A stretch of 61,991 nt of DNA, counting the filler, from Basidiobolus ranarum (lineage: Eukaryota), in assembly GCA_040143965.1 (NCBI GenBank). It is 26 parts of 26 records of this genome, joined end to end, with 100 filler letters (N's around TTAATTAATTAA, not from the genome) between each part and the next. Parts side by side here need not be neighbours in the genome. Positions count along the whole stretch, not along the records: positions 33,489 to 35,775 come from JASJQH010010400.1; 25 more parts are not named here. One strand, 5' to 3'. Both the position numbers and the translations under genes were made by a program. Positions within the stretch are counted from its first letter, which is position 1; each line of letters starts with the position of its first letter. The notes under the pieces were generated by a model. The model did no database searches and was not told the origin of the DNA. It saw only the letters and a list, made by a program, of their open reading frames with translations. Positions 31,100-38,161 of this stretch are shown here, piece by piece.

Positions 31100-32880
31100 T
31101 TTGAAGGTGACAAATTAGCATTCAAGTGGTAAACATGTAACAGGTGAGTTACGTTTTTTGCACATGTGGTGATCCATAGTTTGCTGAAATTGTAGCCAAT
31201 CATGTGCAACTATTTTGGGAGATCTTGAAATTTCACTCCTGAAACTGAAAAATTTGATTAAAATCAAACCTAACTTGATGATTTCATGATGGTAAGTAAA
31301 CAGTCAGTCCCAAATGGCTTAAAATTGTGTCTGTTTTGCTACAAATACAATCCTCAAGTATCTTTTAGGGTTCAAAGCAGCTAGTCAATAGCTAGAGAGT
31401 CACTGAACAATGATACCAGACCTTCAGAATGCTGTACTCAAGCCATAGCAACATGCTCCTCCTTCCATCCTTTCTCATATGGAATTTAAATCAACCCCAC
31501 ACCATATATATGAACATCACCATGATAATTGAGCAGAGCAGAATAAGTTTTGGACCATAAAGCCCACACAATGACCCAAAATTGGGCACATGAAAGTAAA
31601 ATCTTATAGGAAAACTGGCAAACCAAAAAACTCTGAATGTCAGAGCTGCATCACTTGCTCTGACAATGAGTGGTTTAACATTTTGGAAACTGTGCAGAAT
31701 ATTGCCTGAAATCACCTGGATTTGAGTCAATTGTGCAAAAACTAAAAGCCAGGTGCTACTCCAAAGTTCCTTGACTTATTTCATGTACCTAATCCTGGGT
31801 TGTTTCAAGCAGATGGCAATTGGGCTAGTATAGGCTTAATCATGAAACATCTCAAAAATGTATGCAATTATCACCTTAGAAAAGAAAGAAGAGCAGCTAA
31901 AGAAGTACTCAAGGAGCAGGAAGGTAGTAAACCCAACGGAAAAGCAAAGAAGCCAGCAAGTTTTGGCTCTACTGTCCCACTTACTAAATTCTTCACACCA
32001 TTAGAAAGATCTGCATATTCAGAGTCAGATACACTGACAAAAAAGCTTAATTTCACCACAGAACCAGGTACACCAGTTGGAAAAGTGCTAAATATATATG
32101 TTTTTCCAATACCCAGCATCTCTCAACAAGCCCTGGCATCAGCAAATGAAACTCACAGCTCTCCAACCTCAACTGCTACTTTTCAAAGTGTTGAAATTAG
32201 CCCCAATGTTAAAGGCAAGCAAAAAGCTGCACAAACACCGCAAAGCACCTTCAGTAGTTTACACTACAAGGATGTACAAAAATATTTAAAGTGCTTGAGG
32301 AGTATTTTCAATAGAATGAAGGGTAAAACACAGTGCAATTATGCAGAAAGTGGCTTCAAAAGAAGAACATTCAACATGACAATCAGTCTGGTATTGACCA
32401 TGCAGAGATCTGGGAAGAACTTAATACAGAGTGGCACAATATTGCAGGGTATCTGCCAGATAGCTGGAACAATGTTTATCAGGAACATTAATACAATGGT
32501 GGGTTTTGATGGAGATATTAACACAAAATCATGTTGGGTATGAGCTAGACCTAGGGTATGAAGAACTCTATAAAAATATTCCGGAGAATATATCAAGGAG
32601 ATTAGGAATTTCAAAGGTAACACATTAGTATTCAAGTGGTACATGTGTATAATCTTAGTTATATTTTTTGCACCTGTGTTGATCCACAGTTCTCTGAGAA
32701 TGTAGCCAATCATGTGCAACTATTTTTCAAGATCTCAAAATTTCACTCCCAAAACTGAAAAATTTGATAGAAATCAAATCTTACTTGATGATTTTATGAT
32801 GGTAAGCATACTGTCAATCCCAAATGGATTAAAATTGTGATGGTTTTCCTACAATAACAATCCTCAAATATCTGTTAGGG
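31100..32880 (+). mobile_element. CACTA-like terminus (to 31370) followed by a second ORF2 copy with terminus (to 32880)
   Basis: TTAGGG ends at 31370 and 32880; ORF 31800-32543. Confidence 0.88.
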
Positions 32881-33388
32881 ATTATCCATACTGATAATTG
32901 AGAGGAATATATCTCAAAATCTGTTCTAACTTCTGCTGTACACATGGGATGAAACAATAGACTACAGTCCCATATTTGCCACAGCAGAATGAAGCAACAG
33001 AACATGCAAACAGATAAACCATGGAAAAGGCAAGATCAATGCTTCATAATTAAGATTTACCAAAACAGTTCTGGGCTGAATTGGTTGCAACGGCTGTATA
33101 TATTAGGAATAGGTATCCTTCTAGGTCTCTATTGGCTATGGCACCTTATCAAGCTTGGTTTGGAAGTAAACCTGATGTGGCTAATCTTAGAGTTTTTGGA
33201 AGTACCACCTATGCAATGATTCCAGACCAGAAGAGAACAGAATTAGACCAAAAAGCCCAAAACATCTTTTTTTGGGATATTGTGATGGAACAACAGGGTA
33301 CAGATTATATAGCACTGAAAATAAGAGGCTAATCAAATCAAGGGATGTGGAATTTGCTAAAGAAGAAAATTTTCAATCAAAAGAATCC
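32881..33388 (+). pseudogene. Copia integrase core C-terminus
   Basis: IIHTDN..EY..TVPYLPQQN..FWAELVATAVYIRNR.P..PYQAWFGSKPDVANLRVFGS. Confidence 0.9.
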
Positions 33389-33565
33389 NNNNNNNNNNNN
33401 NNNNNNNNNNNNNNNNNNNNNNNNNNNNNNNNTTAATTAATTAANNNNNNNNNNNNNNNNNNNNNNNNNNNNNNNNNNNNNNNNNNNNAAAAGCATTAAC
33501 CTGGAATATCAAGCAATATCACGTAATCCAACTTCTTCACTTTAAATTAAATCATAAGCATAACT

Positions 33566-34081
33566 ATGAGATTCACTCTTGTAACTGTCGCTTTAGTCAC
33601 CTGTATGGCTCCAGTTTACCAAGCTTCCGTCAGTTTGGATGGGAGATGTGGGAATGGGGTTGATTGTCCAACTGGAACATGTTGCTCCACTTGGGGCTTC
33701 TGTGGTACTGGATCATCTTACTGTGGTGGTAGCGGAAATAGTGGAGCTAACGATAATAACAACGACAATAGTGGTGGAAGCAGTGGCAATGGGAATGGTG
33801 GTGGTAACAGTGATGGCAATGGTAGTAATGATAGCCAAACACCACATAGCGAGCCCAACCCCGATAATTCTCAACCAAGTCCAGCACCAACCCAACAAGG
33901 TGGTGATGGGAATAACGCTGGAAGTACACCACAGCAACCGATGGCAACGACTCCAGTAGCTGCCAATCCAGAACCAACTCCAAGCAATAACAACAAACCA
34001 AATGGAGGGGAATCTCTTTTCAATTCGCTCACACTACTTAGTGGAGTAGCAATCGTCTATACTGGATATTGGAATTATTAA
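33566..34081 (+). CDS. Secreted, probably GPI-anchored hevein-type (CBM18/chitin-binding type 1) protein
   Basis: Signal peptide, DGRCGNGVDCPTGTCCSTWGFCGTGSSYCG, G/N/S/P-rich stalk and hydrophobic C-terminus. The ORF is intact. Confidence 0.92.
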   Translation: MRFTLVTVALVTCMAPVYQASVSLDGRCGNGVDCPTGTCCSTWGFCGTGSSYCGGSGNSGANDNNNDNSGGSSGNGNGGGNSDGNGSNDSQTPHSEPNPDNSQPSPAPTQQGGDGNNAGSTPQQPMATTPVAANPEPTPSNNNKPNGGESLFNSLTLLSGVAIVYTGYWNY

Positions 34082-34697
34082 CTTGAAATGACACTAAGCC
34101 TATAATCGAACATCATCAAAGTGACACTTTTAATAAATCGCTCACTTGATCTACTTGGCTTACCAATGAAATGATTCTCAAAGAAGTAGAAACTTTGAAA
34201 GATCTACTTAACACTATATATTGATCCTGCTTTACTTATATTATTGTCAAACTACCATTATATACCATAATAATACTGTATTCCTTTAAAACGCTATGTT
34301 GCCCTTGCATTATATTCTTCAAGAATATTGGAAAGAGTCACTCTATGTATATACAAATTTTATACAATTTCAGATTTACCTTTTTATATTGTGTAATACA
34401 AATTATTCAGTATATTATTATTTGTTGCACGCCAAAAAGAATTTAGCATTGATCAGGTTATTTAATTAATGCGTATTGATAAAACTAGGCATATTTTCAT
34501 TAAAACAATATACCCTGATAGAGCCTTAACAGAATGAAACTAACTGAACGAATAACATTCACGTAATAATCCAGACAGTCATTGCATGATTAAATCTGGA
34601 GTAAACACGATTGCTTCATGCACAGCCTACTACTATAACGGAGAATGCACATGTGATCTCGTTAATAATATTACCTGATTGAATAGTGTACTTTATT

Positions 34698-34922
34698 TTA
34701 GAAAGTCAAGCTTGCTACACTTATCGAGATAAATTGGGGACTGCTGCTAAATAACAGAAGGCTGGGTGTAGCTCCTTTTAGATCAGTCAAAACATCTTTA
34801 GTAGCAGCTGAAGTTAAAGCAGCGTAAACTTGCTGTGGAGTGGGCACCTGTCCCTCAGCCAAAAGTAATGCTGCAATGCCAGCGACATGAGGACTAGCCA
34901 TACTGGTACCAGAGAGCTTTTT
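34698..34922 (-). pseudogene. C-terminal fragment of a subtilisin (S8, proteinase K-like) protease
   Basis: LSGTSMASPHVAGIAALLL contains the catalytic Ser motif. No upstream S8 exons are recognisable within the contig. Confidence 0.88.
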
Positions 34923-35084
34923 GCTAACCCTAACCCTAAACTCAGACGATTGCAAAAAATAATTAGACAACCATAGAAAACTAATCTAATGAATGTCAAC
35001 AGTAAAACTAGACGTATATATTGAGGAATTTACATTTGACAGAAATATGAGTTACATTATCATAAAGCGAATCAAATAGAAGCA

Positions 35085-35775
35085 AGTTTTTGTGACTACA
35101 GACTTTTTCGTGAAGTCTTTTTGTCTCTTGTTGACAAACGGGTCTGAGATGGAAGTACGACTGGCAAATCCCAGCTTTCAGCCAAAGTGCGTCAGGCAAG
35201 AGAGAAAATAAACATTTATAAAGAAGAATATTGCCAACTTGCTTCCTATGCACCTATTAAATTGGTGAATGCTTAACAAGTAGCAATTTATGAAAGCACC
35301 AACATTCATACCACCTACATTAATAATGTAGCTCTTCACTTTGGAAATCGTCTCGGAATGTTTCTAAACAAAGTTTTACAAAAAAAAAAAAAAGATCAAG
35401 CGGACTCAAGATATGAAAAACAACAGCCGCTCAGAAGAGGAAATAAAAACTTCAGTCAAAGCCAATATACTTGATGTTCGCAATATAATTAAAGCAGAAA
35501 TATCTTCAAGAACTGTACCAACTGCCCCAGCAAATTTCTTGGATGACATGGCTGTGCATCAAATTCAGAACTTTTTGAATGTTTACCCAGACAATTATAA
35601 ATTTGCAAAGGGCTCTGTTTACTACAATGCCAAAGCAAACCTGCTGCAGCATTTACACCCATTTTATATGCTCGCAAAAATATGTGAAGATAATAATATG
35701 AAATCATTTAACTACTTCACACTGCGAAAAGGCTTTATCCCTTCTTATATGACAATAGATACTAAGATCTTGAAC
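35085..35775 (+). pseudogene. Fanzor1 (eukaryotic TnpB-derived RNA-guided endonuclease) N-terminal/central region; disrupted and cut by the contig end before RuvC
   Basis: DFFV/EVFLSLVDKR..YKEEYCQLASYAPIKLVNA*QVAIYES..YINNVALHFGNRLGMFLNK, then a poly-A frameshift, then ..YPDNYKFAKGSVYYNAKAN.LQHL..FY.LAKICE...KSFNYFTLRKGFIPSYMTIDTKILN. These motifs are recalled from fungal Fanzor1 proteins. Confidence 0.8.
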
Positions 35776-35875
35776 NNNNNNNNNNNNNNNNNNNNNNNNN
35801 NNNNNNNNNNNNNNNNNNNTTAATTAATTAANNNNNNNNNNNNNNNNNNNNNNNNNNNNNNNNNNNNNNNNNNNN

Positions 35876-36460: not shown

Positions 36461-37879
36461 TTAAAAACTCCTGAAGAACTGAAGAAAGCTACAAACGCTA
36501 ACAAGGACTACTTTGACAAAACCCAACCCCTCCAACCTAAGCCACTATAAGTTAAAGAACTTGTCTTGGAATATGATTCCACTCTTGACAAACAATGGAG
36601 CAGGAAGTTTGACAAATTATGGAGAGGCCCACACAAAATTGTTGAAGTTGTAGGTAATGGAAGCTAATACACCACAGAACTAGATGGAACCAAGCTCAGA
36701 CTACCAGTTGGAGGGAACTGACTAAAGTTATTCAAGAATAGAGAAAACAACTCAACCTGATGAGTATGGTTTTTCACTTGCGTTCAAAATTCAGAGGGGG
36801 GTGGATGTAGTGAGGTAGCATTGCTACTCACTGGCAGGTTGCCTTATTTCCACTCCAAGATCATATGATTACTATTGCACAATATCTATTTTATTATCCA
36901 TATTTGACTTACCCATATTTTCTAGCCAATCATATTGCACCATTAATATTATCCCCTATTATTTCAGACTTAACAATATTAACCCACATTAGCCTTGTGA
37001 TTTTCTGGAAAATTCTACAATCTTCCAGAACATTCCACAAGATTCTTGGAATATTTGACAATTGCTTGAGTTTTGACCAATCAAAACTTGACTTTGCTGG
37101 AACATTCCATGACTTTCTGGATTATTCTAGAACCTTCCAGAACATTCCATGGATTACTAATCTTATGATTTATGGTGATATCATAACCCCAGATCCCCAC
37201 CAATAGAATTCTCTGGAACTTCCAAAAATTGTCATTAGAAATCATTTCTACCATCAGATAAGTATAAACAGGTGCAATATCTTTTCAAATAAAAATCATC
37301 CTGTCTTTCAACTAACAATCACTACTTGTGATCACCCTTTGTTTTCATCACTGCTTACAAGACCTTTGAGCAGGAAGCTCAAAAGAGACTACTAGAGGCA
37401 GTTACTGGCTACTGTGTGACTAGAAAGCACTTGACAGGCTCAAAGGAAGTACTGACAGGTAGGTGTTATTTTTCTGACACTATATATTTTTTTCCCTTGC
37501 TTTGTCTGCATAGGCAAGGAACTTTTCATATCCTTGGATAAATCACTACTAGTGCATACTTGTTCAAAACCCTGCTGGCTGAGTTTACAGTTGTTTTTGA
37601 TTGGATATACCCTTCTATCTGGTCATTCTCAAAGGACATTGAAGCTGGTATATTCTTTTGTCAGGTGCCGGCATATTATTCAACAGAAAGCTGGACATTG
37701 CATTGTGGTTTATCAGTCCTTAGACATTTCTAGAGGCTTGATTCCCTATCACAATGAGCCAAGAGGCAAGAGACAGACCCATATTACAGTACATCCTAGA
37801 GTTATTCAACTGTGGTTATTGCACCCTCTGAGCACCTCACAAAACCCTTAGGATATTGCAGTTAAAGTTACTGCTTACA
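36461..37879 (+). mobile_element. Gypsy integrase C-terminus, PPT and approximately 1.07-kb 3' LTR (36806-37879)
   Basis: LDKQWSRKFDKLWRGPHKIVEV..ELDGT, then AGAGGGGGGTGGA followed by TGTAGTG...GCTTACA. A related LTR start lies at about 11698. Confidence 0.8.
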
Positions 37880-38161
37880 TCCTAAAACAACCACCCCCGG
37901 TTCCAGTCATAGCGTAGATCAAACCACCTACCATAGATTGATAAGGTAACTCAGGGCTCTCAAATGACACATTTTGAGCCATATTTGGCTGATTTTCTTC
38001 ATTTTTGATGGGATTTTTGACTAGTTTCACACCTGGATATGTGGGATTCACTACTGGCTTGCAATTCTCCATCCTGTAACATCTGAGAATGTCTGAGATG
38101 CTATTTAAATTGATTCAGAGTAAAAGATTTGCTTAATATATCTGTATGGATCCACAGACCA
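37880..38161 (-). pseudogene. Copia RT fragment
   Basis: LNQFK..ILRCYRMENCKPVVNP..LPYQSMVGGLIYAMTGT. Confidence 0.85.

Follow-up and report, generated by a model that had tools for sequence, protein, structure and literature searches.

A probable Fanzor1 pseudogene fragment of the Mucorales/PpFz1 clade beside a subtilisin fragment in Basidiobolus ranarum

Among the Fanzor1 proteins of Mucorales, that of Parasitella parasitica (PpFz1) has been studied structurally and biochemically. According to the sections of PMC11423790 drawn upon here, PpFz1 is an ωRNA-guided nuclease that has been shown to cut DNA in vitro; its TAM is 5'-ATN, its ωRNA is 75 nt long, and its structure has been determined by cryo-EM (PDB 9cf0-9cf3, Cell 2024). 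The same sections describe a cyclophilin-binding insertion, FRI, which is reported there only in Parasitella and Rhizopus (PMC11423790). Fanzor1 families of these fungi were catalogued earlier by Bao and Jurka in 2013, with four families in Rhizopus oryzae, ten in Mucor circinelloides and three in Phycomyces blakesleeanus (PMC3627910, Table 1), and three each in Spizellomyces and Allomyces. In the parts of that survey cited here, some Mucorales Fanzor elements are placed with MuDR-like ends, and the RuvC catalytic pattern of Fanzor1 is given as D ... E ... RD (PMC3627910).

The DNA analyzed here, which will be called the window, is a stretch of 61,991 bases composed of 26 contig pieces of 2,280-2,295 bp arranged by descending length; it is not a continuous chromosome. 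One of the pieces, 33489-35775 (2,287 bp), carries at 34941-35775 what is very probably a non-functional Fanzor1 pseudogene fragment of the Mucorales/PpFz1 clade in a Basidiobolus-like fungus. The contig end at 35775 is the genuine end of the piece and cuts the relic. It is followed by an artificial spacer at 35776-35875 (N44-TTAATTAATTAA-N44, belonging to neither strand) that joins two unrelated short contigs, and mapping of the spacers shows that the sequence after 35875 is unrelated to the relic and not contiguous with it. The original prediction was right in stating that the RuvC domain and the ωRNA are not visible here, as the contig ends at 35775. Neither tblastn nor a six-frame HMM search located the RuvC/Zn-finger half in any of the 26 contigs, and these searches returned no Fanzor piece besides the relic itself. 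Self-blastn detected no second copy of the relic DNA in the window, and an Rfam search of 33489-35775 gave no match at E<=0.1. An otherwise complete C-terminal half may lie past the contig end.

When translated in three frames, 34941-35775 on the plus strand reads as the N-terminal portion of Fanzor1, distributed over two phases. In frame A (the phase of 34941) the translation runs through LFREVFLSLVDKRV, a stop, DGSTTGKSQLSAKVRQAREKINIYKEEYCQLASYAPIKLVNA, a second stop and QVAIYESTNIHTTYINNVALHFGNRLGMFLNKVLQKKKK, and in frame B (the phase of 34942) an open run extends to 35775 and contains a 121-aa ORF from the ATG at 35413. The two nonsense codons interrupt the frame-A stretch (35094-35390, +), in which the motifs FREVFLSL and YINNVALHFGNRL are found and which, from the architecture of TnpB and Fanzor proteins, would belong to the REC lobe. 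The TGA at 35145-35147 aligns without a gap with an Arg of P0002 (Rhizopus microsporus) and P0014 (Rhizopus stolonifer), the TAA at 35274-35276 aligns, also without a gap, with a Gln of P0002 and of the family consensus, and both are compatible with single C-to-T changes. A missing base in a T5 run (35104-35108, +) shifts the reading from frame B into frame A; with this switch the score against the family HMM is 104.6 bits versus 95.4 bits for frame A alone, a gain of 9 bits. The reading returns from frame A to frame B at an A14 run in a Lys-rich linker (35380-35393, +), where two HMM alignments meet. An intron as the cause of the frame changes is rejected, because the abutting alignments leave no extra sequence between them. 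The open frame-B stretch that follows (35398-35775, +; 126 codons) runs up to FNYFTLRKGFIPSYMTIDTKILN, where the contig stops. The frameshift at the A14 run may be a homopolymer length error in the assembly, and the same holds for the T5 run; the substitutions in the relic, unlike the homopolymer frameshifts, could not be assembly errors.

These translations and family-HMM alignments reproduce the earlier reading of the locus as two stops, two frameshifts and a 121-aa ORF. The upstream part (34941-35093, +) is the most decayed, and more so than had been described, with further stops in either frame (34974, 35022 and 35037 in frame A, 35077 in frame B). It is 5'-truncated and weakly alignable, from about HMM node 30 on, and a comparison with P0014 and with P0003 of Basidiobolus ranarum suggests that it probably contains a third frame change near 34995.

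The identity of the relic as Fanzor1, as originally predicted, is borne out by the match of its 121-aa ORF to PpFz1 (PDB 9cf0) at E=2e-20 over chain residues 677-794. An HMM of the family, made from 24 members, matches the two frames of the relic at E=1.5e-45 and 3.5e-31, and because of these values the match cannot be a matter of chance. Together the two frames span nodes 30-295 of the 654 in the HMM. Its consensus contains dFfkevflsL, taYlnnikahfGnrl and FqcfPLRksfipcyitiDtkiln, so all three motifs listed in the original prediction for fungal Fanzor1 proteins are found in the family. No Pfam family was matched above threshold by the relic pieces, and Pfam searches with P0001, P0003, P0014 and P0043 gave nothing useful; several homologs of the relic carry the precomputed tag PF26935.1. 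PpFz1 itself was not recovered by a short-motif search of the protein collections.

The search with the 121-aa ORF retrieved three longer proteins, namely a 591-aa protein, P0002 (761 aa) and P0003 (213 aa). Among these, P0002 is the full-length hypothetical protein BCV72DRAFT_303884 of R. microsporus, which matches PpFz1 (9cf0-9cf3) at E=1.4e-120 and the Fanzor1 protein of Spizellomyces punctatus (SpuFz1, 8gkh) at E=3.6e-37. Alignment with the C-terminal region of PpFz1 covers residues 528-721 of P0002 (E=6e-44), and alignment with the C-terminal region of SpuFz1 covers its residues 578-721. The C-terminal half of P0002 holds IDPG..D, E-x-x-TS-x-C-x-x-C and NRD blocks that are aligned to both structures and that we take to be RuvC-I, RuvC-II and RuvC-III. 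Its CPEC...C..C region aligns with the PDB chains of solved Fanzor1 proteins, and the Pfam family Cas12f1-like_TNB is matched at E=0.021, which is below the cutoff of that family. The homologs of the relic, as P0002 compared with 9cf0 and 8gkh demonstrates, continue into a TnpB-like RuvC/Zn-finger half, in agreement with the original prediction. The family is large, an exhaustive search with P0002 giving 1,850 cluster representatives at E<=1e-3 and 153 at E<=1e-30.

The extent of the decay can be judged against this family. HMM nodes 1-29, which correspond to a conserved N-terminal block in P0002, P0003 and P0014, are unmatched in the relic. Twelve columns are at least 80% conserved across 54 family rows, and the relic retains nine of them. 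The three that have changed are YYD, now YYN, ANP, now ANL, and the Pro of FPLR, which is 100% conserved in the family rows and is Thr in the relic. With 126 codons still open and nine of 12 conserved columns kept, the decay is moderate, and the inactivation may have been fairly recent. It is extremely improbable that the locus is a Fanzor1 gene still in working order, with introns or sequencing errors mistaken for defects. Both frameshifts do lie within homopolymers and the final 126 codons are open, but the nonsense codons align residue for residue with the Arg and Gln of the homologs with no insert and hence are not introns, the invariant Pro is replaced by Thr, the N-terminal block is absent, and all of the B. 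ranarum relatives that were found (7/7) are fragments. The stops, the frame changes, the missing N-terminal block and the Pro to Thr replacement leave no intact reading frame of a functional Fanzor1 protein. Nor does the locus have the recognizable ends (TIR/TSD) of a transposon, since on the left there is a truncated ORF and on the right the end of the contig.

If the locus is a pseudogene fragment, as we consider very probable, the following course of events may be proposed. The ancestor of the relic would have been an active ωRNA-guided nuclease like PpFz1, and decay would have set in after the loss of mobility. What is left on the contig is the N-terminal part alone, approximately positions 30-295 of the 650 or so of the family, disabled by nonsense codons, frameshifts and the loss of conserved residues, and 5'-truncated where it adjoins a truncated subtilisin fragment on the opposite strand. 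The relic is very probably inert today, the trace of a DNA transposon that once carried a Fanzor1 gene of the Mucorales/PpFz1 clade. From the architecture of TnpB and Fanzor proteins and the aligned range of 9cf0, the retained part is presumably the REC lobe with the first WED strands, and by homology to PpFz1 it would correspond to the region contacting the TAM duplex and the guide/target heteroduplex.

Comparison with the described systems indicates where the relic belongs. It has conserved motifs in common with PpFz1, including F.CFPLR..FIP.YMT.D.KILN, and both lie within one broader Fanzor1 clade of Mucorales. However, PpFz1 is intact and active, whereas the relic is a broken N-terminal fragment on a contig without RuvC, TNB, FRI or ωRNA. 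Identity between the two, judged by eye, is well under half and lower than that to the Rhizopus proteins. The nearest relatives outside Basidiobolus are P0002 of R. microsporus and P0014 of R. stolonifer, with 60-65% identity over the aligned pieces; P0002 differs in carrying the three C-terminal blocks described above, before which the relic ends. SpuFz1 (8gkh) and bacterial TnpB resemble the full-length homolog P0002 in architecture and have the C-terminal RuvC/Zn-finger core in common with it, but the N-terminal part that is kept in the relic is, as seen through the alignment of P0002, weakly similar to SpuFz1. The 121-aa ORF itself gave no match to SpuFz1 8gkh at E<=1.

The proposal that the relic marks an uncharacterized fungal Fanzor family does not stand, because the Mucorales clade in which it lies holds the solved and TAM-defined PpFz1 and because Mucorales Fanzor1 families were catalogued in 2013. 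The relic is an ordinary transposon remnant of a Fanzor1 group that has already been studied structurally and biochemically. No new nuclease, ωRNA or TAM is to be gained from it, since the regions in question are lacking and an active protein of known structure already represents the clade. The relic does add Basidiobolus to the fungi known to have Fanzor1 remnants. A full-text search for Fanzor together with Basidiobolus returned no paper, and survey supplements may already list the genus.

Seven homologous gene models were found in B. ranarum, all of them fragments of 72-213 aa. Those named are K7432_005479, K7432_013685, K7432_011096, K7432_018482, K7432_010510 and K7432_007029 (P0043, P0003 and P0330-P0333). 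The models are located on other contigs, none is identical to the relic, and all are annotated as hypothetical proteins. Their identity to the 121-aa ORF ranges from 59 to 88%, with 79% for P0043 (166 aa), 83% for P0003 (213 aa) and 59-88% for P0330-P0333 (72-150 aa), of which P0332 reaches 88% and P0333 86%. No protein of 213-2,000 aa with more than 62% identity to the 121-aa ORF was found in the protein collections. These collections offer no support for the suggestion that there may be intact relatives, given that each of the seven B. ranarum models is 72-213 aa long. Gene callers often skip transposons, and for this reason the absence of an intact Basidiobolus copy among the proteins is weak evidence.

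Phylogenetic analysis with FastTree, comprising 65 tips and the 220 profile columns covered by the relic, places the relic in one group with P0003 and P0043 (support 0.988; all supports are SH-like and refer to local branches only). This Basidiobolus group is sister to a pair of R. microsporus proteins, P0002 and P0001 (0.905). R. stolonifer P0014 falls outside the group formed by the Basidiobolus and R. microsporus sequences (0.807), within a clade with a support of 0.962. An adjacent clade includes proteins of Rhizopus arrhizus as well as a 90%-identity cluster to which P. parasitica and Rhizopus delemar contribute members. All of the named neighbors in the tree that were labelled belong to the Mucorales. 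Ten representatives that cover the C-terminal part only are labelled; seven are from Mucorales, one is from Coemansia and one has R. delemar members in its 90% cluster, and Basidiobolus does not occur among the ten. The Basidiobolus copies thus nest within the Rhizopus clade, nearer to R. microsporus than R. stolonifer is, and this nesting is the sole mildly new point of the locus. On account of it, one may tentatively consider, as a possibility rather than an expectation, that a transposon bearing Fanzor1 moved between Mucorales and Basidiobolus, in either direction, and then decayed in Basidiobolus. If true, the transposon would have crossed two deeply separated fungal lineages, and the nesting provides a small lead on the horizontal transfer of transposons among early-diverging fungi.

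The relic adjoins the last 65 codons of a subtilisin (Peptidase_S8) on the minus strand at 34740-34934, including the catalytic-Ser motif GTSMASPHVAG. The fragment is 91% identical to residues 331-395 of the B. ranarum protein P0153, which identifies the contig as coming from Basidiobolus or a close relative and not from a contaminant. The Fanzor fragments nearest to the relic (P0332, P0333, P0003 and P0043) point to the same host, as they too are B. ranarum models. It matches Pfam Peptidase_S8 at E=1.1e-8 over profile positions 233-276 of 288. The contig lacks the ~330 codons before these; instead of an Asp-His-Ser catalytic triad in one polypeptide there are only the Ser region and the C-terminus. 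The reading frame overruns the stop of the B. ranarum homologs by ~14 codons (34698-34739, -), suggesting that the stop has been lost and that the subtilisin is itself a relic.

Homology to subtilisin stops at 34934 and that to Fanzor starts between about 34950 and 34971. The original prediction had an OMEGA-type element landing in or next to the subtilisin gene, a picture that the junction does not bear out, for the Fanzor frame is 5'-truncated at the point where it meets a truncated subtilisin. Truncation of both reading frames at this point means that the junction does not mark where an inserted element terminates. The strict form of the picture is unlikely, namely that a complete OMEGA-type transposon (Fanzor1 with its ωRNA) interrupted a functioning subtilisin gene, possibly within an intron, with the remainder of both past the contig end. 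In its favor, no more than about 10 bases separate the subtilisin homology from the Fanzor homology, the two genes are mutually antisense, and the minus strand at the junction resembles, on a by-eye reading, the 3' end of an intron (CTAAT ... TTTAG just before V-R-V-S codons). However, neither a transposon end nor the ~30 conserved codons with which Fanzor should begin are present between the ORF and the subtilisin, the overrun past the stop of the homologs hints that the subtilisin, too, is a relic, and no further piece of subtilisin or Fanzor is present in the window.

The junction coincides with a telomere-like sequence, CCCTAACCCTAA (34928-34939, assigned to neither strand), and the window has no other CCCTAA/TTAGGG dimer. 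Read on the minus strand, the greater part of this sequence is formed by the subtilisin codons V-R-V-S, for which homologs have VKVS, VNAS and VDAS. Telomere healing at this site was considered and set aside, since the sequence is largely subtilisin coding and probably not an added telomere. The same repeat bears on whether the junction could be an assembly chimera, in which unrelated short-read contigs were joined through a CCCTAA-like repeat and the neighborhood would say nothing about insertion. We regard this as very unlikely. The assembly is highly fragmented, with 26 pieces of ~2.3 kb in the window, and the junction falls on a telomere-like repeat of 12-17 bases, but with most of that repeat being V-R-V-S codons of subtilisin, little shared repeat is left for mis-joining, and CpG content is alike on either side of the junction. 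The two truncated fragments could have come together through a deletion after an old insertion into an intron of the subtilisin, through a rearrangement, or through chimeric assembly.

The observed/expected ratio of CpG is 0.58 in the relic, confirming that it retains some CpG as originally noted, and 0.49 in the remainder of its contig. Of the 26 contigs, 20 have a ratio of 0.12 or less, as low as 0.0 in the extreme, and six have one of 0.43-0.75; G+C is ~30-41% per kilobase across the window. Because the relic keeps its CpG, its location appears to be in a gene-like compartment and not in the CpG-depleted repeat compartment. The sharply bimodal distribution across the contigs suggests a heavily CpG-depleted repeat compartment beside normal genic DNA, the depletion following a pattern as from methylation-driven C-to-T decay.

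Several other features were observed in the window and in the sequence clusters. A fragment of a retroelement polymerase is present at 33081-33329 (+) in the neighboring piece 31100-33388 (Pfam SH3_retrovirus, E=9.9e-11), and Copia-like reading frames occur near 37875-38072, for which a Pfam search gave no match. The 90%-identity Fanzor1 cluster of P0008 has members named from both P. parasitica and R. delemar. P. parasitica is a mycoparasite of Mucorales, and the sections of PMC11423790 used here speculate on exchange between parasite and host; the P0008 cluster fits a recent exchange of that kind between the two genera. On the same contig as the relic, 33566-34081 (+) encodes an intact 171-aa ORF with a hevein-like Chitin_bind_1 domain (Pfam E=2e-7, above cutoff), followed by a low-complexity region rich in Gly, Asn, Ser and Pro and then by a hydrophobic tail; the product probably belongs to the cell wall, in secreted or anchored form.
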